Origin: Amphiscolops sp. MND2022
Lineage: Eukaryota
Direction: 5' to 3'
Assembly: GCA_964187785.1 (NCBI GenBank)
Contig: OZ076409.1
Span: forward strand, 10,046,001 to 10,110,000
DNA length: 64,000 nt
In this document: in pieces, positions 11,314-57,980 of the stretch
Layout of the letters: every line of letters starts with the position of its first letter
How positions within the stretch are numbered: position 1 is the stretch's first letter
Translations under genes and position numbers: made by a program
Notes under the pieces: model-generated
What the model was told of the DNA's origin: nothing
The model's input: the letters and a program-made list of their open reading frames with translations, nothing else
The model's database searches: none

Positions 11314-12521
11314 ATTTCATTTCGTTTTTTTTGAAGGTGGAGGTGTTCCATAAGATTGTTTAGATTGTTCATAATTGTGTATTTTTGGAGATATTTGTTG
11401 TTTTTCTGAAGGAATTTGAGGAGCATTTCGCTCGGTATTTGAATTATTATGTTCTGAAGAGGTTTGATCAGAAAGGGCATTGGAAAAATCTTGTTCCATG
11501 GCTTCGGAAAATAGAACCGGAGAATCGTTAAATAGAGGTTGAGTTAAGAGATCAGTATTTTTAGTTTGTTGTTCAAGTTGAATATAAAGGTTTTGCATAA
11601 CAAGTTGCGCTTGTGTCATTGTAAGGTTTTTGTTGAAGAAATATTGAACTAACGAGTAGATTTATTGTGTGTTTTAGGAGGAGGAGCAAGTACTCTAACT
11701 TTGACTGAAGGAGTGTTCGGGTGATTCACTGTGATTTCTATAACGGGTATTAATAGGAGCGGCGGAAAAAGCTCAGATTTTAAAAAAGATGAATGATCAT
11801 TCGGTTGAAAAAAGATAGATAATTATTCGAATAGAGAATTTTTCGTCTAGGTGGGGAGAGTGTTTGTAGTCAAGAGAATTTTCAGGCAAGAAGATTTAAG
11901 CTTTATCTCAATGAGTAGAGAGTCAGAATGACACGTTTTATAAAAATGGCAGATTAAAAAAAATTGTTTTAGAATAGATTTTGTCAAGACTTTCGTTTTC
12001 TTCAATGACAGATTGTGAATTTAAAGGATAATCATTGGGATTTGAATTGACATTAGAATAAGAAAGTAAAATAGAATCTTGTAATGGAGAAGTATTGACG
12101 GTTGTGATAACAATGTTAGTAGATTGATTTAAACAGCTTTTTCGTTTGGGAAATAATTTGAATTTTGTCATATTGGAAAATCTTTTCGGACTTTGGGTTT
12201 TCAATTATAGATGACAGTTTATATGAACTTTTATGGGGTGATAATGGTCGTCGAGTATGAGAATCTTTCAGGTCATTTATCATGTCGACAGTAATAATAT
12301 AGAAAAAACCATGTGCTATAGAACTAATGAAAGTAATATTTTGTTTAAAATTTTTTTTATCGAAAATGTTTTATAGAGTTTCATACGAGTGTCAAAAATT
12401 TGTATGAAAAGGAATGTAGAAAAATATATTCCACATTGTGTCACACATTCCTTTATCTAACTTCGCGTTTTACACCTACATGGTTTTCAGACGTTTTTAT
12501 AACATTGTTTGGCTATCATTG

Positions 12522-37200: not shown

Positions 37201-38742
37201 ACCTTATGTTAGACACTTTAAAGTGATCCAGACTTAAAATCACATTTAGTTTCTGTTAGCAATCCTTGAGGTTGAATACAGATCCTACTGCATCCGCTTC
37301 TTTCTTCTCTATCCAAAACTATTAACATCCCAAATAACTTCAAATTACAATACAAATTATATGAACCCTAACATATACAATCAAGTAATTTATTCTTTCA
37401 ACTTTTACATTCCGCCAATTAGTTCCCTTCAAAACCCTACATCAAACGATTTTGAAAGATTAATTGAACGATATCAACAATATTTTTTCTTTATCATAAA
37501 TCAACAAAGACATTACCCAAGAGCTCCAACCTAGAAAATCTCTATAAAAATTATTTCCAACGTTTTATTCTTCACATTATAACACGTGGGAAAAAGTTAC
37601 CACAGTAGTACTCATTACAACATACACGTTTTGTGTCTTATTTATAGTTTGTGTTCTCCTTGAAAAAATACTTACAGTGATAACAGACAAACTTTAAAAA
37701 TGTCCTCAACAACAACTTTTCTACCTTTTCAAACTCTCGTCATCAAAAATGCAAAAGTTGTAAAATTAGAACTAAACCCATTCCTACAAAACATTATTTC
37801 ACATTATACACAACCACTCCCATTTGAAAATGAACCTCATACAATTGAAACAATCCCTCTTATTAGAGAACATTTGGACACATACCTCTTCTATATTAGA
37901 TACAAAGTTTTAACTATCACCGCAGAATACCCAGCTTTTCAAATCTCTTTTCCCCAACAAAGACCTAATTCATCTCATATATACAGAAGAACAATAAACC
38001 CAATAAATCTCCAAGTTCCTATTAAACAAGTTTTTCACGCTTTTTTAAACAATGTGAAAGACCACAACCTAGCACATGAAATTCCAAAATTTAGTCCAAA
38101 TGCACTCGAGGATCTTCAACGATATATAAATAATTTCGATGTAGAAATTATTGAAAGATTAGTTAATCCTGAAGACAATCCCCATCATTGGTTACAAACT
38201 GATATACTACGAATTCAAAATTTCCTCTACAATTACTTCGAAGACTTAACATTAAATGACCAAACAATTCCTCAGATCAAAGTAATATCTCTATTCCTCA
38301 GAAAAAACTTCAGATTTAATTATCAACTATTATGGTCACAACAAGATCAATCTGCTTTTACAGCATTCCCAAATCATTTTACAGTCGACGAATGTTTACC
38401 ATTCATCATCAGTGAACAAAATGAACATCCTTATTTTCATAAACCACAATTAATTACAAAACAAACTTTAGATTACATACGTTTTGATCCTCTATTAATT
38501 ACAGAAAATGATCTATTTGCAGACAATAGACCTTATCACTATGAAGAAAATTCTCAAGTTCAGCAAAACTTACATTTTAACACTAACAATTCAACTGAAG
38601 ATGATAATACCAATCAGGAAAATACACTCCAACAACAACATCAAAATGAAACTAATAACGATAATGAGTTATTATCCCGAGAATCTACAATTTCAACACA
38701 TAATCTATCACAAGCAGGAACATCAACATCAGTACACACTCA
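34262..38742 (+). repeat. Tandem duplication, 2241-bp unit x2
   Basis: ORF starts at 35459 and 37700 are 2241 bp apart; the copies are colinear with scattered substitutions. Confidence 0.92.
35459..36500 (+). pseudogene. Truncated duplicate of retroelement ORF1
   Basis: Same N-terminus as 37700..39520; TAG at 36092-36094 where the second copy has TGG. Confidence 0.8.
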
Positions 38743-39590
38743 ATTATTTAGTGTTCCCACTAGAGTTGTAAATCAAAGACAAAATACACATAGTCCTAAA
38801 TCTCATTTAGATACATCTCCAATCCGTAATATAACTTTCAACCTTCCATACACGGATGAAACCCACGACGAAACCCATGACACATTACATGATGATATTC
38901 TGACTACATCTAGTGCTCAGAATACTTCTGTTAATGTTGCATCTCCAACAAGAACTATTCCTGATTCTACAAGATACATTACTCGACCTAGATATGATCC
39001 TCCATCAATTCCCTCTGCTTTCCGCTCAAATAGATCGATTTCTTCAAACAACAATTTTAATGATAACCCTCAAACTTCCAATCAATATTATGATCCATTT
39101 AATTATAACTTTTATCCTCCATCAAACACCACTACCAATACAAATATCAACCAAAATCACTCTCAAATTAATACAACTTCAACAACACAAAACCCCTTCA
39201 TACAATTATCACATACCACTGCTTCACAGAATATATATTCTCAAAATCAAGGAACTTCGTATCCTTCTACTTCTTATTCTAATATTACACAAGCTTCTCA
39301 AAGGAGACTTCAAAACCCTCCACTTACACATATACCAACTGATCCTTTGTATCAAATGCATCCAAATCCAAATCCTAATCCTAATCCAAATCCATTACCA
39401 CAAAATACAATTCAACATATACCTCCTCAACTCACACAACAATTAGCTCCTCCACTCAAAAATTTACCAATGCCACAAGATACCTTTATGAAATGTCCGC
39501 TTCAATACCAGAACCTATGAAACTTTTTGACGGTTTAGACCATTCTTATACCCCAGAAGAATATCTACAACAAGTCGAAGCTAGATTTAC
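37700..39590 (+). pseudogene. Retroelement ORF1/gag-like protein (606-aa ORF, then a frameshifted gag-like segment), cut by an insertion
   Basis: Long N/Q/T/P-rich ORF; the overlapping frame from 39493 gives MSASIPEPMKLFDGLDHSYTPEEYLQQVEAR. Confidence 0.65.
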
Positions 39591-39699
39591 CATTACGACG
39601 CATAACCCTACACTTTTTGTGCAGCTCAAAGTTGAGCCGTTTGAGCAGTGGAATCCTGGGCCAAGCTTTAAAACATGCCAACCGCAAAGAGCGAAAGTC

Positions 39700-40000
39700 G
39701 CCGCGTGGAATTCAGGGACAAATACCGCAGTGTATAATTTCTCGCGATTTCAGTTGACGATAAGGCAAAATCGCGGAATCCGCTGCATTGGTCAGCTCGA
39801 AATCGTGGAATCCACTGCTTGCAGCGGATTCCGGGGCAGTGACAGCGGAATCCGGACCAGTACCAGCGGAATCCGGGGCAGTGTCAGCGGATTCCGCAGA
39901 CTAATGCAAGCAAGTAATAAAATGTTTGTTTTGTGAAGCGGAATCCACTGACAGCTCTGCGTGACATTTGTTTCAAGTTGTATGACAGCGGAATCCGCAG
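39700..40000. repeat. Subterminal cluster of GCGGAATCCG/GCGGATTCCG near-palindromes
   Basis: Many copies within 300 bp, just inside the left junction. Confidence 0.85.
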
Positions 40001-40170
40001 ACGAGCGCAGGCTAGTATAAAGCTTGCTGTATACCTTTATTATTGTGTTTAATAGGGCGTATACAGTTTCTGGGTTTAGGATAAACAAGTCTCCTTGATG
40101 TATTATAGGCCTTCATGTATGGAATCCACTGTTGTCTCTGGGATTAAGATTACTGTCTCCATTATGTATT

Positions 40171-40496
40171 CTACTATGGTCTCTGGGATTAAGATTACTG
40201 AGATAAATTAAAATATGTATCATAATTCTGTATTGCTCGTAATCTACTACTGTATTTTGTGTTTAATTGGATGTGTTTTAATCTAGTTCTATGATGAGAA
40301 TCTATGATAATTTCATTGAATTCAAACTTTTGGAGCCTACTATGGTCTCTGGGATTCAGATTACTGAGATAAATTAAAATATGTATCATAATTCTGTATT
40401 GCTCGTAATCTACTACTGTATTTTGTGTTTAATTGCATGTGTTTTAATCTAGTTCTATGATAAGAAACTATGATAATTTCATTGAATTCAAACTTT
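40171..40496. repeat. ~166-bp tandem duplication
   Basis: CTACTATGGTCTCTGGGATT.AGATTACTGAGATAAATT at 40171 and 40337. Confidence 0.85.
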
Positions 40497-41089
40497 ACTC
40501 TAACTATTTTGTACTCTCTTTTCGAAGACAATTCTTCATCTGCACTAAATTGGCAGGTATTAATAAATGAGCATCAATGACACAATACAACCATGAAATA
40601 AAAGCCGACTAATTAATATACATTGTCTGAAACCTCTACAGGGTGTATACAATTTCTGTGTTTAAGATAACTGTGTCTCCTTGATGTATTATAGGCCTGA
40701 ATGTATTCTACTAAAGCCTCTTGGATTAGGATTACTGTTTCCATTATGTATTTATTATAGGCCTACATGCTATTATTACTACATGTATGCTACTTTTGTC
40801 TCTGGGGTTAGGATTATGTATAATAAGTCTACATGCTATTAATACTACATGTATACAACTATTGTCTCTGAGATTAAAATTACTGTCTCAATTATGTATT
40901 AAAGGCCTACATGCTACTAAAACTACATGTACTCTACTATTTTCTCTGGGATTAGGATAAATGATCTTGATTCTAAACTTGATTTATTATTTGATGCTAG
41001 CAGTATTAATAATAATACAAATACACACATGATTATACACACATGAACATATATTCTTTATGTTTATAATGTTTATAAGAAACCCTCAT

Positions 41090-43462
41090 TTATAAGAAAC
41101 CCTCATTGTGTTTAGAGTTGATATTGAGGATTTCCCGATATTTTTCTTCATTCCGGAAGCGTCCTTCGCAAGAGTTTATTTGAACCTTGATGGTTCGGAA
41201 GAGAAAGTCTTGCGTCTCAGAGAATCGGATTGCTCTGATGAGGGTGTCCAGCGACTCTTCTCCGTCTCCTGGCAAGATGTCCCACCGCTCTCCAAAGAGT
41301 GAGTCCCACGAGCGATGGCAGCCGCGCAGTCCAGTTTCAATATGAGCAGCAAATCTGACCTAAACAATAACATGAACTCAAAAAACGATCATCTTGAATT
41401 GTTTCATTACTCCTAGTTAGCAAATAATTAATGCTTTTCTTAATTGACCAATTTTGTTTTCACTTTGAGTCCAGTTTCAATATGAGCAGCAAATCTGAAC
41501 TAAACAATAACATGAACTCAAAAAACGATCATCTTGAATTGTTTCAATGCTCTTAGTTAACAATTACTTAATGATTTTCTTAATTGACCAATTTTATTCT
41601 GAAATACGTACATTATCCCGAGCTGAATCTGCTTCGAATCCAACACATCGCCTGGTGAAAGGTGTTGCGGGGCACACATTGAAACTCGCAGAATGTTTTC
41701 TTCGACAAAGACCTATGGCCCGCTTGATGGCAGAAAATACTGCATATGCTCGATCAATGGGGCAAACCATGCTGTCTAGACTCACGGGGTCCAATGCTGT
41801 GTAATTTTCTTCCGGGAGCCTTACTGAAGACGCTGGAACTCTGCTAGTGAAGTCCGCACTTTCATCCCATGTCAAACTGACAAATGCTTTCTTCCTTGAA
41901 ATGACGTACTCCAGCATTTCAATAGTGCATAGGTATCCTCCTCTGTCCAAAGCCTTCTTGCCTTTAACAAGAATGCCGTTTGTGCACGGAGCGCAAGTCA
42001 ATGGCACGCTTGTCCTGGTGTCTCCGTCCGGAAGCACGGGGATTAAATTGATCATGTCAATTTCTAAGGGCTTTTCCTTCTGAGAGCGGGGCTTTTTTGG
42101 AGCCGGCGGACGAGGAATCGAGTCGTCATCGTCGTCAACAACGTCTTCTCCTTTCGGGACGATGGCACTAACTTGCTGGACTGGGTTCCGTAGTACGGTG
42201 TACGAAACGTATCGAGGCATTTCGTCTTCTACGGAAACCATCATCTGTTGTAGGAACGGATCATTAAGCAGTATTCGTCCATGCTTCACAACTGCAACGT
42301 CTTCCGATTCGTCTAAGAAGTCTACCTAAATAAATAAAGGAATAAATCTAAATGCAGAGATCATTTCAAAAATGCCTAATTGCAGTGTATACAAATTTTA
42401 CATGGAATAAATCCTACTTAGCGCAGAAATAAAAATTAGACCTGATAAATAACACTTCTCCTATTTCCAGAGGTGTACAATTTTACATGGACTAAGTCCT
42501 AATAGGTATCCCGAATACTCTTCTCCTAATCCCAGAGAAATACAATCAAACAATGTACATGTCACATTACGGTGCCATGCATAACCCAACACTTTTTGAA
42601 AAGAACGGAGTCGACTACTCACAGCATTTTGTACCTACATGACCTGGAATCCGCTGTTTTAAATAAATCCGATTAAATAAATCCGCTGTTTAAACATGGA
42701 ATAAATCCTATTTAGCGCAGAAATAAAAATTAGACCTGATAAATAACACTTCTCCTATTTCCAGAGGTGTACAATTTTACATGGACTAAGTCCTAATAGG
42801 TATCCCGAATACTCTTCTCCTAATCCCAGAGAAATACAATCAAACAATGTACATGTCACATTACGGTGCCATGCATAACCCAACACTTTTTGAAAAGAAC
42901 GGAGTCGACTACTCACAGCATTTTGTACCTACATGACCTGGAATCCGCTGTTTTAAATGACGGATTTCAAAGACACACTTTATAACAAGTGCAGCGGAAT
43001 CCCGGACAAATCTCTTTACATTAGGTTTTTAGTGGATTCCGGATGCAAATCCTATTATATTAGACAGCAGCGGATTCCGCAGTCGCTATTTTTAACCGCA
43101 CTGATTTTCAAAAAATAAAAATTATTTGGACTGACACTCACCTCATCGTCATGAACACAATGTTTGGGGTTGTACTCGAGTTGTACTGCCCTTGGTGTTT
43201 GTCGTCTGTCCTCTCTGGAAAGTATGGAGGAATGTGTCTTTTCTATAACTTTTCGAAGGTTCCATAACGACTGATCTGTTCGCTTTTCCTCTGGTACCTC
43301 AATAGTTTCTGAAGGATAGATTGAAGTGTAGCCCATCCATTTTATTTTAACAGACCAGTCGCTAACGATGCCAATAATTTTAGCCTTTGTCCACCTAGAT
43401 ATACTCTCGTCAATAGCATGAACAATTTCGTTTGGACGAAAAATTTCCGCGGGCGTAGACAT
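41090..43462 (-). CDS. Three-exon gene (~434 aa) with an N-terminal Tudor/chromo-barrel-like domain
   Basis: Exons 43462-43142, 42325-41612 and 41359-41090 join in frame at GT-AG sites. The N-terminal EIVHAIDESISRWTKAKIIGIVSDWSVKIKWMGY fits a Tudor-like barrel; the C-terminus is unassigned. Confidence 0.7.
42401..42957. repeat. 294-bp tandem duplication in intron 1 of the Tudor-like gene
   Basis: Units start at 42401 and 42695 and are nearly identical. Confidence 0.9.
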
Positions 43463-43764
43463 ACTGGTAAATAATATTCAGGTAAGGAAGGTAAACAGGT
43501 AGAGTAACTCGACAACTGTATAATGATAACAACGACTGACTATCAGTAAAACTTTTAGTAAAAGCGAGGTGCTTAATTGACACCTGTCTATCGATTAGAG
43601 ACGCATTATTACACCCTTTGGAAAGCGTCACATCATTTCGAAAAGCGTCCAGTTATTTGAAAAAGCGTCAAATAACACTTTAACGTGGTAATTGAGTTGA
43701 GGTGCGAACTTCTGATGTGATATTAACCTCTCCATTCTTATTTTAATTTTCATCTTCATCTCCA

Positions 43765-46624
43765 ATGGCAGGAGCAAGTTACATACAAAGTTTATGGGAT
43801 CAACACTTGTTGATTGTCGAATGCAATAGGCAGTTTATCAACAGCGACATTCTAGAGAAGATATATCTTGCGGAAATAAATTCCAAGAACAGGTATCGTA
43901 ATATGCTTACAGCTGTGAAACAAATTGTTACTGGTACTTCGCTGGATCGAGATCCAGAAGCTTTGGTCAGAAGAGTCAAAACCAAAAAAGGAGGACGTGA
44001 AGCAGTCTACGTAGCTGCAAAAATAATGAAACTTATCATAGTTTGCGGATTGAGAGATCACACATGGAACCAAGTCAGGAAAGACTTTGTCTCCTTTTTT
44101 TTCTCCCGAGAGCTTATTCCTGATGTTGACCCTTACAATGTGTCTTTCCCAAACAACGTCCCCATCAATGCGTCTGTACCAAACAACGTCCCCATCAATG
44201 GTTCTGTACCAAACAACGTCCACATCATTGCGTCTGTACCAAACAACGTCCCCATCAATGGTTCTGTACCAAACAACGTCCACATCAATGCGTCTGTACC
44301 AAACAACGTCACCTTCAATGCTCCTGCCACTAGCAACTCGTGTACTGTATGTCTGCATAGTATGCCTGTTTCATCTGGCACATCTGGCAGATCCATCAAA
44401 CGGACTAACCTAATTAAGAGCAGACCGAAACTTTCATTACGTAAAAATGCTCAGGATGTGTGTAAAGCCGGGGAAAAGTTGAACTTGAAGAGCTTTTGGA
44501 GACAAGTCATTTGGTGCATCAGGTACAAAGGGATTAGTATTCGTGGGTTGACTGAAGCAGCACACAGAGAAGCTGAACAAAGGAAGAGGCGTAATGGAGC
44601 ATCCAAGAAGCAAAAGAACATCATAGGGGGGCTTATTGCTGGCTTGTTCAAGGACAGGGGTAACTGTTCTGACTTTCGCGACGCATTGGCAATTCATACG
44701 AAGACTGGTAACGTAAATGACGTAATCAACCTGATTCGTTCTCGATTGTCAGTTCCTGGCCTGGGCTTCAACTTGGTACCCTCAATTCGTACGGTTGTCA
44801 CGTCCAATGCCAAATTCACCCAACATTTCATTAAACTCTGTAATCCGGAGAGAACCTTTAGTGGATTCCGAGTGGATGTTGTTCGATGTGTCAAACTTGC
44901 TGCATACGCAATCCTTCAAACTACAAACATCTCGGGACTAAAAGTTGATATCTGGGGAGATGGTGCCGCAATTGGAGGAACAGAAGTAACAAGGCTGGCG
45001 TTCAGATTGATCTGTGAGGAAATAAGTGTGCAATCATCTGACAGTGTCTTCTGTTTTGCTGCGTACCGAGGCAAGGACAGCAGGTTTGCTTTAGAGCAAA
45101 ACGTGGGATACGAAAAAGTTGGGGACCAAACATCCGGGTGGCTGTTCAAGCAGACTGTTGCGTTGAGAGAACTCGGCGTCAAATTGACTTATAGCGGAGA
45201 CAACCCGTTCCTACTCAGGTGAGCAACATTTGATGCATGGTTGCAGCCTGATTCATGAAATCTGGATTTGAGAGAGATTCTTTCTGTTTATTCTCCTGCT
45301 GTTATGTCTTTGTAATGTTTTTGCTGTAATGTAATTTGAGAACTTCCTGAGCCTACAAGATCTCCAATTTTTTCTTACATTTAGGTTAATTCTTGGAATC
45401 TCAAACGATCGCAGCTCAGATTTCCCGTCACTCATGCCACTGTTTCTGGGATCAGACGACACGTTTCTACCTACAACAGTCGATCCAAAATCTGGATACC
45501 GAAGCAATGTTCCAGTTCCTTTCCGCACTGACCTACCTGCGACGTCTCTCGTAAGCTACGACGACATACGATGCGTTTGCCCTGATGTAACGCATATGAT
45601 AACAAGATGTGTCGAGAATGACCTGAAAAAAATTGCACAGAAGCTTGTTGATGACAAGCATCCCAAAGAGAAAGAGTCACTTGCGCGTTTGGAAGAAAAT
45701 TTGACCAAACGAGATGTGAAAAAACCGCACTTTCAGTTCGATACGACTACCAAATCTGGACAGAAGGTGAAGACTGTCGGTGCGGTGTCACTTTCTGGGT
45801 CGGGAGCACTTACAGCAATTGCCGACAAAAAAGAGTTTGCTGATATGATTCCGGACATGACAAACTTATTCGAAGGTGTATGGAAAGACGAAGAAATATT
45901 AATTGGAAGCAATGACAATGAAAACTCCGTCAAGGTGCTGAAACAGATGTACCCGTCATTGTTTTCGAAACCAAATCCCACGAAGAAGAATGAAAACTAT
46001 GGGTATATTTCTATTTCAGATGCAGCTGAGCTGTTGAGGGAAAGCCTCAACATGTGCACTATTCTTTTGCGCAGTTCACGGACCGGTCTTGACATTACAA
46101 GTTTCACCAAGTGGTCAGAGACGTATTATCAAGTCTCAATTTTACTTTTTGGCAAAGATAAAGGACTTACGCCTTACAAGCTGAAGATGCTACTTTATCC
46201 ACAACTAATTGAAAGCGGACATATTATAACTCCTTGGAATCATATGTGCGAGGGTTTGGAGAAGTCTAACCATAATGCAAACAAAGCATTCCAGAGCAAG
46301 ACGATGAGAGGCGGAGGAAAGCAGTCAACCCAGGACCCCCTTTTTTTCGAGCTTCAATTTTCCTTGCTGAAGCTATTCAGGAAACAATCCCTTAAAGCAA
46401 AACAAGTTTCAATTAACGATTTCCTATCGAAAGCCCGAGGAATTGTTGGCATCGCCAATCAAGCTGACGAAGAATCGAAGACTTACAATGATATTTGCCT
46501 GCAGCCTGTTTCGTGCGCTTCGATTGCTGTCGGTGAGACACGGAACAAGAAAAACCGATTTTTGGGATTGTACTTTTTTGTAGTGGGTAACTTTGGTTCA
46601 AAGAAAAATGAAGATGTCCGATAA
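43765..46624 (+). CDS. RAG1/Transib-related DDE transposase (~897 aa spliced)
   Basis: A GT-AG intron at 45219-45384 joins the two ORFs in frame. Ordered motifs KVDIWGDG, TYSGDNPFL, CPDVTH..R, SLSG, LTPY and EGLEKSN parallel RAG1 D600, D708, DALH and E962. Confidence 0.75.
44149..44322 (+). repeat. In-frame 30-bp minisatellite (~6 copies; PNNVPINASV)
   Basis: CCAAACAACGTC recurs every 30 bp from 44149 to 44299. Confidence 0.95.
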
Positions 46625-47115
46625 CAGAGATGGGCGGAACAGTTTGCACCAAAGCAAGTGCTGAAACATTGTTATTTTCGCACTCAACTTGTCCAAACTG
46701 CTTTGTTGTTATGAAGGACGAAAAAGAATTGAGGAAGTCGACGGATACTCTCAAAGAATCAACGAACGATAAAGAGTTGATGGACGTGCCAAAGAAGTCT
46801 GTATCGGAAAATGCGGCAACTCCAACAGGACTTCTATGTCGCAAATTTGCTGGAGGAGATTGGAAATTCATTCACTTTTCGTTTGTTTTTGATTCGTTAG
46901 AATCAGATCGCATCCTGGATCCGAAAAAGTACGAAATTTTACCCGGACCAAACGTCAAGAAATTGCAAGTTAAAGATGTTCGCCCTTTGTTAGCGAGGCA
47001 GTGCAGTGAACAAGGTCAAAAAGTTTCTGCTATCTCAGCCCTGAAGAGCCACAGAAACAAAAGAAAGATCGAAGAGGAAAAAGCAGCGGATACTGAGGAA
47101 ACATTATCAACATGA
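46556..47115 (+). pseudogene. BRCT-like C-terminal domain of the transposase, split by a frameshift at ~46620
   Basis: FLGLYFFVVGNF (first frame), then ITEMGGTV...WKFIHFSFVFDSLESDRILDPKKYEI (shifted frame), matches the BRCT pattern; basic NLS-like tail. Confidence 0.65.
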
Positions 47116-47324
47116 ACCTAATTTCGTATGTTTCTTTTTGTTAGTTGTGTATATGTTCGTTTTCACAACATTTTTGTATATTTTGTTCTGTTCAATTGAG
47201 TTGTTCACGTACAAACTTATGTCGTTCTTCTTGAAAAGTTGTTGAGGGCAAAATCATGGTTTTTCTGAGTATTTGATATGGGAGAGGTCGGTTTTTGCTA
47301 GTCGGAAAAAATTGGAGCATTAAA

Positions 47325-47720
47325 CAGTGAATTCCGCTGTTAGCGAGTGTTGCGCTTCACAATTATTGTCTTCCAAAATCGCAGTGCGGAATTTAGGGAC
47401 CTATGTTAATACATGTACAGCGGAATCCGCAGGCGAATGTTAATACATTGCGATTTCGGTTTCCTGTACCATACCTCAAGAAAATATCCAAATAGGCTTA
47501 GTAGCATAAAACAGTGGATTCCGTGGTTAGCGAAAGTGTTGCGCCTCATAACAGCGGAACCCGCTGTTTTGTATTACAGATTGATGCCTTCCAAAAACGC
47601 TGTGCGGAATTTAAGGACAGATAGTAATACATGCACAGCGGAATCCGCAGACGAATGCTAATACATTGCGATTTCGATTTCCTGTACCATACCTTAGGAA
47701 AATATCCAAATCTACGTAGC
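47325..47720 (+). repeat. ~218-bp GCGGAATCCGC-containing unit, ~2 copies
   Basis: Reverse complement of the array at 51655-52225. Confidence 0.9.
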
Positions 47721-48299
47721 AGCTTGAAATCTGCCTAAAAGCTGAGAAATTCATAAAATTATACTAATATCATCAATTCTCTATCTAATGTATGTTCAAT
47801 AAAAAGCAGTAAAATTAAAAATTTGAAAAATTATTGAAAAGTTCTCATCAGGATCTTCTTTGATGGGAAGTCCCGGGGGACCCCGAAGGCACTGGGATGT
47901 CACAGGAAAGCCAGCTAGACATCTGTTCGAATGTAACTCCAAACTAGAAACAAAATTCCTCCATAATGAATAGAAACACATATTTTGTTTCACCGACAAG
48001 CAACAGGCAAAAAACAAAAAACTTCTAGTCAGGCAAAGTCAAAAAGTATTATGAAAGTTTGCATGAGAATTGCATACTTTCTGGCAAACGGTGTCAATGG
48101 AAATTTCGACAGTCTGACATTTCGTCTTCTGCACAATTAATGCAGATGTAACTCCATACTAGAAACAAAATTCCTCCGTAATAAATAGAAACAAATATTT
48201 TGTTTCACCGACAAGCAAAAGGCAAAAAAAAAAAACAAAATGCAAAAAACTTCTAGCTAGACAAAGTCAAAAAGTATTATGAAAGTTTGCATGAAAATT

Positions 48300-51031
48300 A
48301 CATACTTTCTGGCAAACTGTGGCAATGGAATTTTCAACAGTGTGGCAATTCGTCTTCTGCACTATCATAGCAGCGTTGAACAGCTGTTGCTTTTCAAGCT
48401 TGCCCACGCATGCAGACGAACTAAAATACAACAACCTCTGTGTTTAGGAATATGATTGTTTCATAATTATTTCAAACAGACTATATACAAAACGACATGT
48501 ATCATGAAAAGTGATTTTATAACTAAAAAAATAATAATGTACCTCATCAAACTCGCAATGTGCGTGAACAAAAGTCGGGGAAAGTGGGGATAGCATTGAT
48601 CGTAGGGGTCATGCCGGTACCGCTCTTCAGAAAACTCTTCTGCAGCTTTCTTCACGTGCAGGCGGTGAATGAAGTTGACTCCCAGAGCAACTGACATGCC
48701 GAAAGTCTCCACCGCGTGGATCATCTTCGCAGGAAGAATCAGCGCCTGTCCCTCGAAGAGAGTGACTTTTGCGCAGCCGCCCATGTCAAGCTCTTCATGG
48801 GTGCCAAAAAAGAGGTCTCTTCTAAACAATCAATAACAGTAATAAATTTGTCCCGGTTATCAGTCTTACATGCATAACAGAGAGAAAAGCACTGTGTAGT
48901 GTAAGTATAAACAATTTTACTTGCCTGGGGAGATTCTTGAACGCCTTGAACAAGTCAACGTTTCTGGCAGTGGGCCTCACGACATGAAAAACTTTAACTC
49001 CTGTAACAATAGTCCGTCAACCACCAAACACTTGACTTATTTAAAAAAACACGATTTTCATTTTACTTGTACTAAAACCTGTTACCAACCTTTGGCCAGA
49101 TAATACAAGACACTTGTGGATGAAAAATCCTGGTGGAACCTCGTGATTGCGCCATTTTGTGAAATCAGCAAATAATTCGATTCACGCACTGGACGCAATT
49201 CTTCAGGTGTCTGTTCCCAGTTCATGTGCCCAAGGGAAACCTCGTCTAGAAAACTAGGCTTCTTGAAAGAGGCTCCTGGGCACTTGTTTGCCTCGGCATC
49301 GATGACGTTGAAGAATTTGGGGGGGTCACTCTCCATCATCTCGGTAACTCTGTTACCTGGCACAACTTTCTTCCCTTCCTAAATAATAAATATCAGGTCA
49401 GGTACATGTATTCTCAAATTTATAATAGAGAACAAAATTGTTGTTTGTATCTCTTTTAGCAGTTCCATTGACTCTCCTAACCTCGAACTTCGTCGTCAAA
49501 TAACGAAGTGTTACGGGGTTGCCAGTGTAATTCTGCATCATTTGTTGAACAGACGACATTCGGCACATCTTCTCTCTGGTTAGTTTCGTGTTGAAGCCGG
49601 GGATGGCCAAACCGTCACGGATGACGAAGACATATTCCCCGTCCAAAAAAGCAGGGTCTGACAGCAGTTCTGGTGTGACTTCTCCTGCTGTTATGTCACG
49701 CCGCATCGAGGTAGCATTTGGAATCTAAATTTACTCCATGTTACATTACACAGAAGTCAAAACCTTATTTGTCAATCCAGAGATTTATATCTAGAGAAAA
49801 GACCTAATTCTTAAAACCAGAGATTTAAGTCTAAAGAAGATATCTTATTCGTGAATCCAGAGACTCAAAACCGATTAGATCTAGAGTCCGGAGAAGAGAT
49901 TGCATTCTAAGATCCTGAGAAGAGATCTCATTCTTAAATCCAGAGAAGTTCTTACTTGACTCATAAGGTCACGTAGTTCCCAGATGCTAGCGAACGATTT
50001 CATGAGGTTCGTGTTCGTCATGTTCATCCTTCGCATGGTAAGCGTACATCTGGTCAGGTTTGGAAGTGTCGCTGGCATTCGAGATACACTCTTGTGCAAA
50101 CGTCGTCGTTTCTGTTGCCACTTTTCCTAAAGCATTATCGGTTTTAGAAGTTTAAATCCCTCCAAACCATTATGCTTTTGAAACTAGAAATCCATAAAAA
50201 TTACACATCCCAAAAATATTACATGAAACATGAAACAGTCATTCAAAAAAATACATACACATTTGGGCTCTTCAACTTGAATGTGGTTGACTTCTGCAAT
50301 CTTGAAGGCTTCCAAAGCTACCATGGAAGCGATTGCCTCTTCTTCTCGCTTGTCCTCCAGAAGAACAACAGACTCTTCCACAATAACTTCTTCTGCCTCT
50401 GTTGCAAAATGGAGGGTGGAAGAGGAGGAAACAGGCTCAGGCTCCACAGGACTGCTGATTTCCGGAACCTGTTCAAAAATAAATCATTTGAACTCAAAAA
50501 TGTGAATCATTCAAAATCAAACAGAACCTATGACTTAATTCTTATTCATGCCCATAAGCTACGTTTTTATTAAATTTATTTGTTTGATTTTGATTGAATT
50601 ACCTCCCACCAGGGTGGTGAAGTCGATGTCTCACTGGTTTCTCGGACTTGGACTTCTCGTTTAACCAACTTAGATGGTGGCGGTTGATTAAAGAACTTCC
50701 TCGTCCTCCCTTCTGCCGAGAAGGCCTTCTTGCAGCCCGGGTAGGTGTCTCTTACGAGAACAAAGTTTTCCAGTGTGGGCTCCAGTAATTTGGCCCGATC
50801 TTCCGCTGTTAGTTCATTTCGAGCATTCCAGCATCGGAGTGTCAGCACATGATCAGCAGTCTGCTGCACGTCCTTGAAGAAGGAGCCATCTGTAGGAGAG
50901 CCACAAAACATGCACTTCATTCTTGTGCTGCGCGTCTGCTCTCTCTTACCGCAACTCTGATTCATGTGCCGGGTTAGATTACCCTTATTTGAGAGGGTCA
51001 GTTGGCACGTGGGGCATTGAAATTGGGGCAT
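48300..51031 (-). CDS. C2H2 zinc finger + JmjC histone demethylase (KDM2/KDM7-like), >=8 exons; 3' end uncertain
   Basis: In-frame exons 51031-50603, 50468-50259, 50126-49956, 49724-49482, 49378-49090, 49000-48925, 48821-48543 and 48420-~48300. Motifs CPTC..NLTRH, TRFHQDFSSTSVLY, GVKVFHVVRPT, LILPAKMIHAVET and GVNF. Confidence 0.85.
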
Positions 51032-51654
51032 ATTTCCAGAGAGAACCTTCAAACAAAAAATTTTTAGGCCAAATACAATTTCCTACAATCAAGATCATAA
51101 TTGCAGAGGTTGGAAAATAAATACTTCAATAGCATTTGATCTTAGTTTTCAAGAGATTACAGATACTTTTCCTAAATCCAGAGGTAAGCATCAGTCATAC
51201 ATGCAATCATGACACAATGCACAAGTTAGTAGGCAGATGTTGCAATCGCAAATGTCCAACGGAAACTGTTACTGAAGCAACTTTACGTGATATTTACTTT
51301 ATTCGATTTGATCTCACTGCACCAACTGCGCCTGAGCATACTGTATTCTCGTTAGATGAAAGTTTCAAACTCTAAATGACATTTCTCTGGGTTTCGGAAT
51401 GAGCGACTGCTCCCAAGTACCCTGCGGCGACTCCCCAGCCACCTTGGAGGAACGGATCACAAAAGCTTCAGTAGACGAGTTTAGGCACTTTTATAGGCGC
51501 TTATAAGACAACTACAGACATATAGACACTGATAGAATCTTAAGAGATTCTACTTGACTTCTAGTTAATTAGGATTTCAACCTGGGAAATTTGAGATTAC
51601 TGGTCCCGAAATGCATTTTCAAGAGAGGGTTCAAAAAAATAAAATTCCTAAACA

Positions 51655-52225
51655 CAGTTTCATGCTACTGAGCAGATTTGGATATTTTCTTGAGGTCTGG
51701 TACATGAAATGGAAATCGCAATGTATTAACATTTGCCTGCGGATTCCGCTGTACATGTATTAACATAGGTCCCGAAATTCCGCACTGCGATTTTGGAAGG
51801 CATCAACCTGGAATACAAAACAGCGGGTTCCGCTGTTATGAGGCGCATCACTCTCGCTAACCACGGAATCCACTGTTTTATGCTACTAAGCATATTTGGA
51901 TATTTTCTTGAGGTATGGTACACGAAATCGAAATCGCAATGTATTAACATTCGCCTGCGGATTCCGCTGTATATGTATTAACATAGGTCCCTAAATTCCG
52001 CACTGCGATTTTGGAAGGCATCAATCTGGAATACAAAACAGCGGGTTCCGCTGTTATGAGGCGCATCCCTCTCGCTAACCACGGAGTCCACTGTTTTATG
52101 CTACTAAGCATTTTTGAACATTTTCTTCAGGTATTGTACAGGAAACTTAAATGGCAATGTATTAACATTTGTCTGAGGATTCCGCTGTACATGTAATAAA
52201 ATTTGTCCTTAAATTCCGCACTGTT
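51655..52225 (-). repeat. ~218-bp unit, ~2.5 copies, inverted relative to 47325-47720
   Basis: GCAATGTATTAACATT recurs at ~51718, ~51936 and ~52155. Confidence 0.9.
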
Positions 52226-52817
52226 TCTTTGGGAGGCAATAATATGGAGTATAAAACATTTTGTTGTTATGAGGAAAAAATCGTTTGGTGCTCAATGTTG
52301 TTCTAGATTGTGTAACATAGATTGTATTTCATTGTTATAGATAGGGTTTTATTCATATGAGTGTCATTCGGCCAATCCAAGATACATGTGTTTCACGCAT
52401 TCATCTTTCAAGTCCTGATGAAAACTTGTCGGGCATTCTTTCGGGCCAAAGAACGAACAATGAGAAAAAGTGCTGATGACTCAAGTCAAATGATATATGA
52501 GGTGTGGTTTTAACACTTCCAAATGATTAAGAACCGCATCAGGCGCTGCCAAAAATTATAATAGAAATAATTATAAAATTATAATCATTATAATTATATA
52601 ATTACAGTTATTTTCATTGGCAGCGTCTGATGAGGCTTTTTTTACTTTGTCAAAGTGGAAGTGCTAAATTACTATGGTAGCAATCAGCAGTTAAGTAATT
52701 AGCAGTTTCAGTAGTATTATAATACTATTCATAATACTATTCATAATATAATTTTGATCTACTAGGAATCAGTCAATTTGAATTGTACATCGTTCTATTT
52801 CTCGAAAAAAACCTACA

Positions 52818-55513
52818 ATGTCTCTGCAAACGCATCAAATTCAGTCACAACCATTAGAAGATCTTGGAAATTTGACAGAACTTCAATCGCCTCAACTAGT
52901 TACCTCAACGCCAGTGCAACCCGAGACGTTTACACTTACACTACCTCCTCCTCCTCCAGTTCCATCATTAACCCCTCTCTCACGATCGCATGAATATTTG
53001 ACTACCCCTACCGGAAAGAGTCCGGCTGCAGTTCGACAATATTCACAACCGTCATATTTTGATTGGAATCAATCGCAATGGCTCAACATGGATGGAATTT
53101 CGCACGAACTTCCTCCGAACATGTTTGGTGAAATTCTTCCACCACCTGAACACTCGCCGGACCTTTTTCTTCCTCCGCTTGAAGCTTCGTCGACTGAGCA
53201 ACTTGAAGAAAGCCGGAAAAGAGCAACTAGCTCTGCAACAATTGATATTCCGGAGGTCAGTTTTTGAATTTCAATTGAAAATTTCAAACTGAAGCGGGAG
53301 ATTTTCACCTTCTAGAACCACATAGAGCACGAAAACAAATTTGTTCATCATAACAGCGGAATCCGCTGTCTTATGTTTCATATCATTGACTTCCAAAAGA
53401 GCGTTGCGGAATTTAGGGGCAAATGTTAACACATGTGCAGCGGAATCCGCAGACAAATGCTAATACATTGTGATTTCAGTTTTCGGTACCATACCTCAAG
53501 AAAATTTCCAGCTGCCGCCTTGGCTGAGCGGTGACGGATTTCCATTTTCTTTCAGCTTTACTTTCAAGAAAAAAACTCTCAAGAAAAACTTCATATTTTC
53601 CAGATTTTAAAATTCATTTTGTGTTTGAATTTGAAAACCAATTTGCATATGAATTTGTGATTGAACTTGTTGAGTATTATTTGACTTTCATTCTAATTTT
53701 GAAGTTGTTTTTGAAATTTGTATTCAATATATTTAGAAAATATCGAAGACTTCTATCAGGGTTACTTGTGGCGAGACGACTGAAGAAGAACTTGAGATAG
53801 CCATCAGGGACATTGTAGAGCAGTACAAGAAAACGGAAGCTCTGACACAAAAGCAAAGAACAATGCTCTTTCGTGCTTTGGCGTGTTTCCTCTCAAAGCA
53901 TGCATCACCACCAATGATGGACAAAGGTATCATAGAGCTGACAGTGCATGCTGTTACACAGGCCATCGTTACCTTACAAGAGGACACAGACGATGAAACA
54001 GCAGTTGCAGCAGGAATCAAAATCTATGTTGAGCCTGCTGAATTTTCTCCGATAAGATCGTCGCACACTGTTCCTCGATGGGTAGTGGACGGTTTGAAAA
54101 CATACTACCTGGAGGCAAGACCGCACTTCCTGCCAAAAGAAGGTCTTGATGTTTTCACCAGGGTTTTCGCAGATGACGAAAGAACAGTGAGAACTTACCG
54201 CTTTTTCGTCAATTCCAATGGCTCAACCCATTTCAAAGTGCGCCAACTATGCGACCAATTCAAAGACACGGTAAAAACTTAAACTTCAATCTAGAAACAC
54301 CTAAATTGCTTCAAATGTTTCCAGGGTTTACCTAAGTTTGCGTATTTTAGCTTCAGCAGCACATCGATAACCCTCATGAGACCACCCTAGAAAGACATGT
54401 TGCGAGTTTTCTGCCGTTTCGAAGCGATCCAGGTTTCACCATTGGCAAACAGAAGCAAGTAATCAATCAGGTTTTGTTCTTTTTCGTTTGGTAATAAAAT
54501 ATTGACTTTCTAAGCTTTCGCTTTCAACAAAGGAATGGAAGTTCTTTTTTAGGTGAAAAGTCAGACAGAAAAGTATTCCCACAAAGAGGTTTCCAAGGCA
54601 GTGAAACACAGACTTGACCAATTACGGTACCATCGGCAAACAATTAGAGCGCAACATTGGATCAAGAACAATGGTTGGTTACTGCCAAACTGCAGTGATA
54701 TGGAGCAGCGCCTGAACACCTTTTATGCGAGGATGGGCTGGGACAAATGCGACATCAAGAAAACGATGACTATAGCTTTAAAACAGGTTAGGTTGGGTTA
54801 CGTCGCGTTCGAGTTTTTTAGATTGCAGTGTATTAGATTACGGTAAAATTTCCCAATGGCACAAATCGAAAATCGAATGGGGCAAAAAAATCAATTGTTT
54901 TGGTGCCATAGGGTAAGCAACTAAAGAAGTGTTTTGCCTGTCTGGAGCTGCCCAATGCTAAGTGATCGATGGTTATTAGAAAAAATCATTGCGTTTGGAT
55001 GCTTTGTGTTTTGTATAGATGAAGAGCACATCATCACGGACCAGTATAAGCAGGCCTCAGTTCAATCCAATCATCTGCAAAGGAGACAGGTTGTCATACG
55101 AAAACCAGATGAGTTTAAAAGACCGAATTGACAACCAAAAGTGGGAATGGATTTGCGATGCCCATTTCACTAAATTCGGTCGAGGCATTGTCAGTCTAGG
55201 AAAACTGGAGAAAGACACAATAATTGTAGACTACCACGGGAAAGTCATTACCGGCCAGAAGTTCGATGAGTACGTGCAGCAACCCGACGTTACGAGCGAG
55301 TTTGTCATGGAAGTAGCAGGTCCACCAAAGCGACTTATAGATGCCAGTTCCGAGATTTGTGTGGATCATCCAACAAATTTATGTAATAATAATAATGTTT
55401 TATCTTTAGAGTTGTAAGATTAAAAATGTCTACAATTTCGTTATGTCGTTTAGGTATGGGTCGTTTAGCCAACCACGCGACCCAGAGAAAAAACAACGCT
55501 GATAACAGAGAAG
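52818..55513 (+). CDS. Multi-exon protein with a degenerate tyrosine-recombinase-like segment and a C-terminal SET domain (PR-Set7/SETD8-like); runs into the gap
   Basis: In-frame exons 52818-53255, 53737-54270, 54351-54458, 54553-54786, 55019-55382 and 55454-gap. SET motifs FGRGIV, IVDYHGKVI, IDAS and CMGRLANHA. Confidence 0.82.
53345..53510 (+). repeat. Further partial copy of the ~218-bp unit inside SET-gene intron 1
   Basis: Matches ~47545-47705. Confidence 0.85.
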
Positions 55514-55713
55514 NNNNNNNNNNNNNNNNNNNNNNNNNNNNNNNNNNNNNNNNNNNNNNNNNNNNNNNNNNNNNNNNNNNNNNNNNNNNNNNNNNNNNNN
55601 NNNNNNNNNNNNNNNNNNNNNNNNNNNNNNNNNNNNNNNNNNNNNNNNNNNNNNNNNNNNNNNNNNNNNNNNNNNNNNNNNNNNNNNNNNNNNNNNNNNN
55701 NNNNNNNNNNNNN
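55514..55713. other. Assembly gap (200 N)
   Basis: Run of N. Confidence 1.
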
Positions 55714-57071
55714 TTTGCTGAAAACCACGTGCGCTTTGGAGCGTGAGCGCTCCGTAAACGAAATTTTAGACGTCCTCTTGCAGAAAACTCGTGCTAAAAA
55801 AGTGGTGCTTTTTTGATTGATGTATGGAATCGTGGATTTGATCAATTTCAAGGTGCATTTTTGAGTACTGTTTTTCTAGCTCTCGAGCTAGCTCTGTTTC
55901 AACAGTTTCTGGACGATGCAGATTCTCTGGATGGCAAGAAGCAAGACCTCATGGTTGCCCAATCAGCAAAAGATGACAGTGCCACTGGACAGTTGCAAAA
56001 TCACCAGTTTGAGATCCCCGTGGATTGCACTCATGATGTGGCGATGTATTCAATGCCAGCCTCTCCGCATGACAGGGACATCATGCATAAAGCCCGGGGA
56101 GTGATGTAACGGCAAGCTCTGGTACAGCAATATCAACCGATTTTGCAACTTTGACATGTTCAGAAATTTTGTCAAAAATTCTAATTCGATGTGTGACGTG
56201 GCACTGAGCATGTGATTGCTCTTTTCGCTGTTTCTACGAAATTGGCAGGTACTTCGACAACAAAGAGCAAGAACGAGCAAAAATACGGGCGCGCCGCCAT
56301 GACAGAAGCCAGAGACGGCAAGAACATCCGAAAATAGACTCTTTTGAGGTGCTAACACCGGTTTTATCGATTTTCAGCATTATGCTACCCTATGTAGCAG
56401 AAACCGGTAAAATGAGTCTTTTCGCTTAATTGTCCTTGTTTGGTGCTTGGAGCCCCTGCGCCCCAGCTTTTTAGCTGTGTGGTTTGCCATTCCGATGTGT
56501 GCTTTGATGTATTTCTGCTGGATTTAGCCGTTTGAACTAGCGCCAGCGCTAGTTTGTGCACTTTTAGATCTTACTCCCCATTTAAGATATTATTCCGATC
56601 TCAGATGGAAGATGGAAATTTACACTGTTTATTCTTGGCATTGTTTTTAAAGGCTGTCTAAACGGTGGTCCCAGGCAAAGGGCCGAGACGGATGCCCGTT
56701 ATTCTCAGCAGTTACAGACTGGGACCAGGCCAGAGAGCGTCCTACAAGACGGTTCCCCCACCTTGGGACTGGCTCCTTCGCAGGGAAAATGAGCTAGAGC
56801 CGCGGAGATCTAGGTCCCAGATTATATTCGCTGTTCTAGTTCCTCCACTCTACGTTGCGGTTCAAGCGCCAGCGCTTATCGTTACAAATCTTCTGCCATT
56901 TTTACCGATGAGATCACTGTAACTGTTCCAACCTGCTCATTTGTTCGTGTACAATAATCATCAGCAACAACGAACTTCACATTCATTTCAATCGATTAAT
57001 CTACCTCGACTGTTAGAATCAAAAGACAATCAAAACAGAATGCGTATAATATTTTTCAGAACACGTATATT

Positions 57072-57980
57072 ATGATTGGGATAATCATCGTTTGTGTATC
57101 ATTCACACTTCATGCAGAAAAAGCAGCTGGAAATTCCAATATAATTCGTTCCACGGCATTCGAAAACCCAATAAATGAGAAACGTTTGGACGCAGGAAGT
57201 GTTATTGAAACACGACAAGAAACATTGGGTACAAAATGCGCTCTTGCTTGTTCTTAAAACGATGACTGCCTTTCGTTCGGTTTCTGCGGGGAAGAATCTT
57301 GCAAATTGTACAGCGAAGACATGTTTTCAACGGAACATGGTGAGAAAATTCCAGAATTCTGCAAATAATTTGGAATGAAGAAGGAATCGAAACCAATATG
57401 CCAGCAAGATGGCGTGTTTGCAGACATACAGAGTGACGATGGAAACAGTACCGATTGTCTCATAGATGGAAAGCGAGTTGACAGAGAGTGGGGCCAATGG
57501 GGAGGGAATGAAATAGTAGATGACCCTCCTGATTGGAAAATAGTTAACAAGAGAGAGACTTTAGTTGATGCAGCTCACGGAGGAATTCATGACTTGGGAA
57601 ATTTTGAGCGATCCCTAGAATGGATCAAGTTTGTGGATCAAGAGATGACATGGGAAGATGCAAAAGCAAACTGCGAAACTTTAGGTGGAACTTTGTTCTC
57701 CAGAGTAGATGGAAGCGAGGAGCAATTAAGTTTCTTGCTACAGAAAATGAACAGGAAGTCGCACTGGTTGGGGATCTACACAAAAGATCACAAAGTCTGG
57801 AAATCTGTGACAGGTGACGTCATTAAATCAGCTTCACTGTATTGGAAAAGTGGTCAACCAAATGATTTTTTAGGTGATCAAAATTATGTTGCTAACCGTA
57901 AATGGAAAACCGAATTGATCATTGGTTTGGCAGATGACCAAAACTCGGATGTCAAAGGATCAGTGTGCGACATGCTGTGA
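57072..57980 (+). pseudogene. PAN/apple + C-type lectin paralogue with two in-frame stops
   Basis: Colinear with 24883-25803; TAA at 57255-57257 (AAA in the paralogue) and at 57366-57368 (TAC in the paralogue); small in-frame deletion. Confidence 0.9.

Follow-up and report, generated by a model that had tools for sequence, protein, structure and literature searches.

The 64,000-nucleotide stretch of the Amphiscolops sp. MND2022 genome analyzed here (contig OZ076409.1, positions 10,046,001 to 10,110,000; hereafter the window) contains a block, starting at position 39591, that is very probably the left four-fifths of a single autonomous and recently active transposon of the CACTA/EnSpm-Mirage-Chapaev-Transib (CMCT) type, with four genes that include a transposase of RAG1-like fold and JmjC and SET genes that look selected. 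A mobile unit of this kind had been proposed in an earlier note made from the letters of the window, which described four genes as Tudor-like (minus strand), transposase-BRCT (plus), ZnF-JmjC (minus) and YR-like-SET (plus). The gene order and strands proved to be as described, and the genes are laid out as follows.

41594..43462, minus strand: gene 1, partner protein of about 350 amino acids; exon 1 43462-43142, intron 43141-42326, exon 2 42325-41597, then stop
43765..47115, plus strand: gene 2, DDE transposase with a C-terminal BRCT domain; exon 1 43765-45218, intron 45219-45384, exon 2 45385-47115
48467..51031, minus strand: gene 3, C2H2 zinc finger and JmjC protein of predicted KDM2/KDM7/PHF8 type; exons 51031-50603, 49724-49482, 49378-49090, 49000-48925 and 48821 to about 48553
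52818..55513, plus strand: gene 4, about 590 amino acids with a probable C-terminal SET domain; exons 52818-53255, 53737-54270, 54553-54786, 55019-55382 and 55454 onward, cut by an assembly gap

A four-gene block that moves as one unit

Copies of the block were sought in the 1.07-Gb assembly, in which the window corresponds to C1:10046001-10110000. With the whole 16-kb block as query the best 2 of 2099 candidates were scored, and shorter queries were used instead; the copy counts given here come from the best 40 of 155 candidates for the transposase exon, the best 40 of 292 for the left end and the best 40 of 327 for the right end. Exon 1 of the transposase (1476 nt) gave 55 matches over the 40 loci scored, which fall into three classes: 14 loci at 96–100% identity (the window included), 11 at 89–93%, and 15 that make up a subfamily with split matches. 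The block in the window is colinear with eight more long copies at 97.6–99.9% identity, and each of them keeps the four-gene order. A copy of an older subfamily (C2:3825849..., 76–94% identical by piece) is also colinear across all four genes. The left flanks of the long copies are mutually unrelated, and all of these copies open with CATTACGACG at the equivalent of window position 39591, where the earlier note had placed the start of the block. That note had offered, as a check on its proposal, a search for copies with the same gene order and different flanks, and such copies are found in the eight further long copies and the older subfamily. Because the four genes travel together at different loci, the reading in which they are single-copy or independent genes fails; they behave as one mobile unit.

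The full element measures 19,711 bp in the ungapped C11 copy, and the window holds its left 15.9 kb, or about four-fifths. The block of at least 15.9 kb described at the outset is thus real, but the element is longer (19.7 kb) and its right 3.8 kb are lost in the window at an assembly gap. Nearly all young copies are interrupted by such gaps; for example, the C1:9677... copy is assembled only to the equivalent of window position 47236, where a gap follows. The C6 copy is an internal deletion, in which position 44291 is fused to position 54915 within the same two ends.

The ends themselves were defined from copies in which both are assembled:

39591..39619, plus strand: left terminal inverted repeat of 29 bp (CATTACGACGCATAACCCTACACTTTTTG), the reverse complement of the right end in the C11, C4 and C10 copies with one mismatch

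The termini read CATTACG...CGTAATG and are therefore of the form 5'-CA...TG-3'. Target duplications were judged in 12 both-ended copies, nine of which were added through end-specific searches with 50–60-base flanks. A perfect 2-bp duplication was present in 11 of the 12 (AC, TA, TA, GG, TT, TG, AT, AA, TT, AA and AA). Derivatives measuring 871 bp, 2.5 kb and 11.9 kb, along with two of about 1.2 kb, belong to the both-ended set; the short ones (0.9–2.5 kb), sharing the ends of the long copies, are non-autonomous. In copies at different loci, the terminal repeats and 2-bp duplications bound the whole 16.9–19.7 kb. The right end, the terminal repeats and the target duplication, which the earlier note had expected to lie beyond the gap, were thus obtained from other copies (29-bp repeat, 2-bp duplication).

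Three other readings of the ends were discarded. A right end at about 17.6 kb (AT-rich, without an inverted repeat) was rejected because homology with the older copy extends as far as 19.7 kb; the apparent end had been produced by a short AT-rich segment that is duplicated. Helitron and Crypton readings, which involve no inverted repeats, were dropped once the terminal repeats and target duplications were seen.

A part of the right arm (L012:8142-9760, about 533-1587) also occurs at 85–94% identity at loci free of the element, such as C11:44654727 and C1:50428098. This suggests that another small repeat is nested in, or was captured by, the non-coding right arm of the young subfamily.

A transposase with a RAG1-like fold and a BRCT domain

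The single intron of gene 2 has GT-AG borders and is in phase 2, and homologues read PFLLR-LILG across the junction. These homologues are numerous: 21 were found in a word-indexed search, and 627 representative clusters at E<=1e-3 in a full HMMER search. For the transposase core, no Pfam transposase family, those of CACTA type included, was found in the exons or in the homologues, and phmmer searches of all PDB chains with both exons and with an 11-sequence profile returned no RAG1, BbRAGL or HzTransib at E<=10.

The relationship to RAG1 emerged from structure prediction. An AlphaFold model was built from a 42-row alignment for the homologue P0002, which is 43% and 53% identical to the two transposase exons of the window (predicted local distance difference test score, pLDDT, 85.1; predicted template modeling score, pTM, 0.75). 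Foldseek returned RAG1 as the first match to this model (E 3.9e-7), and among the matches listed of 47 at E<=1e-3, all were RAG1, BbRAGL or HzTransib. In VIA-align, residues 263-788 of the model align to residues 459-1006 of RAG1 with a Z score of 19.4 and a root-mean-square deviation of 4.0 over 415 residues. HzTransib (Z 17.3) and BbRAGL (Z 16.9) score nearly as well, and the next family down is the P element (Z 10.6). The C-terminal part of the model (residues 835-1001) aligns to the BRCT domains of 53BP1, BRCA1 and XRCC1 with Z scores of 9.5–10.2. At the sequence level, Pfam BRCT_2 matches the window transposase at E 0.0033, and BRCT or BRCT_2 matches 2 of 11 homologues each, with a best E of 1.2e-4; all of these are below the cut-off. 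As modeled for the homologue, and at the level of the fold, the transposase thus has the architecture of the RAG1/Transib catalytic core followed by a C-terminal BRCT domain. The label of RAG1-like transposase-BRCT is therefore supported in its fold and its BRCT domain by the homologue model, but the protein is not a canonical Transib transposase.

The acidic residues that are invariant in the family, in the motifs DIWGD, GKDSR, YSGD, CPD, RxxE and EGxExSNH, are all kept in the window protein, and they map to predicted RNase-H-like strands and a late helix of the P0002 model. From the predicted order of these strands, rather than from a superposition, we infer which of them form the DDE triad. 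The EGxExxN stretch seems to resemble the RAG1 segment around E962. In addition, the family alignment contains the motif CxCPDxxH, with its two C positions kept in 19 and 25 of 36 rows and its H in 37 of 37; another H precedes the invariant E by three residues (38 of 40).

The transposase contains a VPNNVPINAS-like decapeptide repeat, encoded by six tandem 30-nt units at 44106-44345, with indels of 9 and 18 nt between subfamilies. The region is a disordered stretch in the modeled homologue.

Predicted demethylase and methyltransferase genes

The first exon of gene 3 matches the Pfam zf-C2H2 family (E 1.7e-4; 22.3 bits, below the 25.2-bit cut-off). Two further exons match JmjC proteins of the KDM2A/KDM7/PHF8 group in searches of PDB chains, and they do so in colinear order: exon 49378-49090 matches KDM2A residues 95-192, including the FHxDF motif (E 6.5e-3), and the exon from 48821 matches PHF8 and KDM2A, including the second histidine (E 1.7e-4). 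The HxD...H Fe(II)-binding triad is intact, with FHQDF paired with FHVDF in the KDM2A alignment and IHAV with an identical IHAV in that of PHF8. A 76-nt micro-exon (49000-48925) together with a GC-AG intron (48924-48822) makes the JmjC core continuous and supplies a strand that was otherwise missing. Two small exons within about 50398-49956 are tentative, and the C-terminal end of the protein is uncertain. The zinc-finger match, the matches to KDM2A and PHF8 and the intact triad bear out the ZnF-JmjC label, and they support the prediction that gene 3 encodes a C2H2 and JmjC histone demethylase of the KDM2/KDM7/PHF8 type.

The five exons of gene 4 join in frame at GT-AG junctions. Two consecutive exons, the second of which was read from the copy L035, match the Pfam SET family (PF00856) colinearly, over profile positions 1-53 (13.5 bits, E 0.1) and 63-105 (13.6 bits, E 0.09). 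Chance is an unlikely explanation, since two neighboring exons match the same family in the right order. The stretches RLANHA in the window and QLRFDYGD in L035 correspond to the NH(S/C)-type motif and the conserved tyrosine of the (E)LxFDY motif of SET domains. A SET domain at the C-terminus of gene 4 is therefore probable, and it is the weakest of the labels that found support.

For the middle part of the protein, called tyrosine-recombinase-like (YR-like) in the earlier note, no Pfam match was obtained, and a homologue search with the middle exon, covering longer proteins only, found none. A weak lead came from the language-model-based Atlas, in which this part scored 0.93 with a Phage_integrase cluster (13% of its members) and 0.91 with a ResT/TelK cluster, with few shared features. 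Thus the SET half of the YR-like-SET label is supported by two sub-threshold, colinear Pfam matches, but the YR-like half has no significant Pfam or PDB match.

Selection and integrity of the four genes

The ratio of nonsynonymous to synonymous substitution rates (dN/dS) was calculated for 15 exon pieces between the window copy and the older-subfamily copy; the values below come from this one pair and are indicative only.

Partner gene exons: dN/dS 0.17, 0.24
Transposase exons: 0.18, 0.19; BRCT: 0.29
Zinc-finger exon: 0.24; JmjC exons: 0.42, 0.14, 0.21
Two tentative exons of the JmjC gene: 0.58, 0.74
Gene 4: 0.26, 0.83 (middle exon), 0.19, 0.12

Synonymous divergence (dS) was 0.36–0.50 in the JmjC exons versus 0.04–0.24 in the other genes. 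In the same pair of copies, indels are absent from the exons but abound in introns and spacers. Integrity was scored for 14 exon pieces in the nine long copies. One copy is clean, with no stop or frameshift, in all 14, a second in 13 (the fourteenth is cut by a gap), and a third, which ends at a gap, in all five of its assembled pieces. The window copy is clean in 14 of 14 pieces but carries a 7-bp deletion, and each of the other five copies carries between one and five lesions, in some cases perhaps through assembly errors. As most exons show a dN/dS of 0.12–0.42 between subfamilies, the cargo appears to be selected. The JmjC and probable SET genes are integral parts of the element.

The partner gene and distant relatives of the transposase

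Gene 1, which runs divergently from the transposase gene, has a GT-AG junction that preserves the frame. Searches of Pfam and PDB with its exons found no significant match; across the PDB sequence searches with the transposase exons and profile, the SET exons and exon 1 of this gene, the only matches were chance ones (designed armadillo repeats and a phycobilisome linker). A weak SH3_1 match (E 0.056) appeared in one of three aligned sequences, and in the Atlas DUF3104 came out best at 0.86. For exon 2, the AlphaFold model has a pLDDT of 34 and is unusable, the homologues found being only close ones (74–98% identity). Exon 1 and exon 2 share an 18-residue match (E 0.012), which does not establish an internal duplication. 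With no significant Pfam or PDB match and a model of this quality, we treat the Tudor-like label proposed for gene 1 as tentative and refer to its product as the partner protein.

Distant relatives were examined in a metagenome scan that yielded 13 contigs of <=7.4 kb, most with short flanks; in four of them the sequence upstream of the match to the N-terminus is longer than 500 bp. The contig L059 encodes a transposase 30–39% identical to that of the window and, upstream on the opposite strand, homologues of both gene 1 exons (E 7e-6 and 2e-10). It is the only contig with a gene 1 homologue among the four with sufficient upstream sequence (1 of 13 overall), and gene 1 is the only neighbor kept beside the transposase in this distant relative. 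JmjC and SET genes were found in 0 of the 13 contigs, of which only L058 and L059 have about 2 kb of downstream sequence. The cargo is thus not a family-wide feature, given that neither L058 nor L059 has JmjC or SET downstream. Downstream of the L059 transposase lies a Cys-rich open reading frame (ORF; 5883-6887, minus strand) that is PLAC8-like by eye and not JmjC, and that could be a different cargo or a host gene.

The relatives bear on the possibility that the JmjC and SET genes are passengers, captured once from the host with their introns and not serving the element, in the manner of Pack-MULE or CACTA-like capture. CACTA-type elements do capture genes, the cargo genes have introns, and the middle exon of gene 4 has the dN/dS of 0.83 noted above; the absence of JmjC and SET in the roughly 2 kb downstream in L058 and L059 points the same way. 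However, passengers would not be expected to show a dN/dS of 0.12–0.42 in the JmjC and SET domain exons between subfamilies that stand apart by a dS of 0.12–0.50, nor exons free of indels amid indel-filled introns. The reading frames are also intact in most young copies, and the same cargo is kept in at least two subfamilies. We therefore regard simple passenger status as unlikely.

Several other observations weigh against an intact, RAG1-related transposon with chromatin-modifying cargo, and they are best considered together. The fold evidence comes from the homologue P0002 and not from the window's own spliced protein, and the C(2)C / H(3-4)H spacing given for CMCT transposases in the literature is not seen in the family alignment. 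The 7-bp deletion in the window copy, at 46619, is private to it and shifts the transposase frame ahead of the BRCT domain; all of the other young copies examined (8 of 8) retain those 7 bp, as does the older copy. Among the 12 both-ended copies, the one in C11 has TA versus AT at its ends and thus no matching duplication. For the cargo, the exon-by-exon Pfam scan gave no JmjC match in gene 3 and returned Cupin_8 only (E 0.26). Each SET match is below the 22.4-bit cut-off, although a rough sum of the two is above it, and a PDB sequence search with both SET exons found nothing. No JmjC or SET gene was found in the approximately 2 kb downstream of the related transposases in L058 and L059. Finally, the dN/dS values rest on a single pair of copies, and the splice models and expression of the genes are predictions from the DNA.

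Motif arrays and a possible chromatin circuit

The earlier note had described the block as tied together by its own motif repeats. In agreement with this, exact GCGGATTCCGC and its variant GCGGAATCCGC occur ten times in the window, all between 39773 and 53440. Allowing one mismatch, GCGGAWTCCGC occurs 20 times in the window versus 0.28 expected, a number reached in 0 of 100 shuffles, and 18 of the 20 matches are within 39773-53450. The block contains the following arrays and larger repeats:

39773..39998, plus strand: left subterminal GCGGAWTCCGC array (repeat finding), with 21-bp spacing at 39822-39997
47321..47729, plus strand: 218-nt motif-bearing repeats, left arm of a 368-nt inverted repeat (repeat finding)
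51653..52306, minus strand: three tandem 218-nt motif-bearing repeats between the divergently oriented genes 3 and 4, which form the right arm of the inverted repeat
53341-53510, no strand: further 218-nt repeat (repeat finding)
42400..42958, no strand: 265-nt unit present twice within the gene 1 intron, at a distance of 294 nt (repeat finding)

In the full C11 copy, the motif (again with at most one mismatch) lies under both ends, at element positions 183-398 and 19303-19570, and also between and inside genes at 3481, 7864-8082, 12235-12537 and 13754-13838. The core GGAWTCC is found 35 times in this copy versus 1.7 expected from shuffles. Subterminal repeat arrays are typical of CACTA-type elements, where they are bound by an element protein. 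The genomic places of the 218-nt repeat fall in the same contig neighborhoods as copies of the element, with one place in C4 not tied to a listed copy.

The other two GCGGAWTCCGC matches in the window, each with one mismatch, are at 2238-2248 and 2383-2393, far outside the block and with no further similarity to the element. This pair may have been left by a related family, or may be due to chance. A strong negative GC skew marks the first 4 kb of the window.

For the transposon as a whole, we envisage that the DDE transposase, perhaps aided by the gene 1 partner, would bind the terminal repeats and subterminal motifs, excise the element and reinsert it at a 2-bp staggered cut, and that the BRCT domain may couple the reaction to double-strand-break repair. 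The ZnF-JmjC and SET proteins would alter the methylation of histone lysines on copies of the element itself, where the motif arrays may serve to recruit them. Histone and DNA methylation are the main means by which hosts silence transposons. That the cargo genes edit the chromatin of the element itself, and so delay or tune host silencing, is a tentative proposal drawn from the gene content, which we hold at somewhat less than even chances. The fuller version, in which a RAG1-fold transposon carries its own histone-methylation circuit made up of a JmjC eraser, a SET writer and perhaps a barrel reader recruited to the GCGGAWTCCGC arrays, is more doubtful still. If true, this circuit would be a self-contained chromatin module in a cut-and-paste transposon, and would parallel the gain by RAG1 of a chromatin-reading partner.

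The cargo might instead act in transposition or target choice, for example by marking or reading chromatin where the element integrates or at the break left by its excision, together with the BRCT domain, rather than against silencing. The BRCT domain of the transposase fits such a role, as do the arrays under both ends, where transposition proteins bind, and RAG2, the partner of RAG1, reads H3K4me3. The 12 sites examined, on the other hand, show no insertion preference beyond the variable 2-bp duplication, and we consider a role of this kind improbable.

Far less probable than either of these alternatives is a composite or nest, with a two-gene transposon beside independent JmjC and SET units, or a segmental duplication: the 368-nt inverted repeats (arms 47362-47729 and 51658-52025, 91% complementary) bracket the JmjC gene (47730-51657), its dS of 0.36–0.50 exceeds the 0.04–0.24 of the other genes, and the C1:9677... 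copy ends at window position 47236, but terminal repeats and 2-bp duplications enclose the whole 16.9–19.7 kb at different loci, the 218-nt repeats reside in the neighborhoods of element copies, the C1 copy ends at an assembly gap, and the deleted copy joins 44291 to 54915 inside the same ends.

The bracketing of the JmjC gene by the inverted repeat coincides with an about doubled synonymous divergence of its exons (48553-49724) compared with the other genes. Module exchange or inversion between lineages might lie behind both features.

To our knowledge, few transposon-encoded counter-measures to silencing have been documented, namely VANC, TET/JBP and, in oomycete elements, SET. With a demethylase and a methyltransferase both maintained by selection, an element would offer a tractable system for the control of chromatin by transposons, its near-identical copies and its mini-derivatives with shared ends adding to that tractability. 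The transposase family, with 627 clusters and no Pfam model, also widens the set of relatives in which the evolution of the RAG1/Transib core and its links to DNA repair can be followed.

Relationship to known transposons

The 2-bp target duplication, the CA...TG termini and the RAG1-like transposase fit the CMCT assemblage. Mirage elements likewise have a target duplication of 2 bp. The clade is defined by CA..TG termini and target duplications of 2-5 bp (PMC12730594), and Repbase has merged Mirage and Chapaev into EnSpm (PMC4455052). The likeness extends to the subterminal arrays and to the very long multi-gene form, both of which are CACTA-like. The element differs from CMCT transposons in its BRCT-ended transposase and its JmjC and SET cargo.

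With Transib and RAG1 (PDB 6xny, 6pqx and 6b40), the likeness lies in the catalytic-core fold of P0002, over about 415 residues and with Z scores of 16.9–19.4. In contrast to canonical Transib elements, the target duplication is 2 bp and not 5 bp, the termini begin with CATTACG and not with a CACAGTG or CACAATG heptamer resembling the recombination signal sequence (RSS), and there is no HMMER similarity. A 2026 preprint gives CACAGTG/CACAATG as the Transib heptamer, describes 3-bp and TA duplications within Transib, and argues that both the duplication length and the heptamer are labile (10.64898/2026.08.26.747230). The element also differs from the RAG system in that a RAG2-like gene is absent from it and a divergently oriented partner gene is present instead.

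The closest parallels for the cargo are transposons that carry epigenetic modifiers. SET domains are described in HarbingerS and MuDR elements of Phytophthora, VANC in plant VANDAL elements, and TET/JBP dioxygenases in fungal KDZ, EnSpm, ESTA, Plavaka and Helitron elements (PMC12730594). These elements resemble the present one in having an enzyme or regulator of silencing marks as a stable part of the element. They differ from it in that a JmjC demethylase and a probable SET methyltransferase occur here together in one element. A full-text literature search, with Repbase Reports and most subscription journals outside its scope, found no paper on a JmjC-encoding transposon with terminal inverted repeats. 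Transposon-borne SET, TET/JBP and VANC, by comparison, have published precedents.

The insertion site and surroundings of the window copy

The window copy is inserted in the gag-like ORF of a high-copy retroelement; the 400-bp left flank has 1398 candidates in the genome. Uninterrupted copies of this retroelement (L068 and L069) carry the reading frame beyond the insertion point, which confirms that the ORF is cut off at the start of the block as had been claimed. A Pfam search with the retroelement flank gave no gag match, and the gag reading rests on the continuation of the ORF in the intact copies. The two sides of the copy are marked by the following features.

39589..39590, no strand: left copy (AC) of the presumed 2-bp target duplication; uninterrupted retroelement copies read GATTAAC^CTTC, and the right copy is not assembled
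55514..55713, no strand: 200-N assembly gap, at which the last part of the SET gene, the non-coding right arm (about 3.5 kb) and the terminal repeat on that side are missing

The retroelement was noted at 37664-39590. Upstream there is a 618-amino-acid ORF rich in N, T, Q and P, and the sequence has a strong C-over-G skew at 34–40 kb. On the other side, the sequence following the gap (55714-56800) is without similarity to the element and belongs to an abundant repeat (5028 candidates, copies 92–97% identical). A similar abundant repeat also follows the gap of the C1:9677... copy, probably by coincidence given its abundance. Further downstream, an ORF at 57369-57980 on the plus strand encodes a C-type lectin domain, matched above the cut-off by Pfam Lectin_C (E 3.1e-7), and is probably an exon of a host gene.

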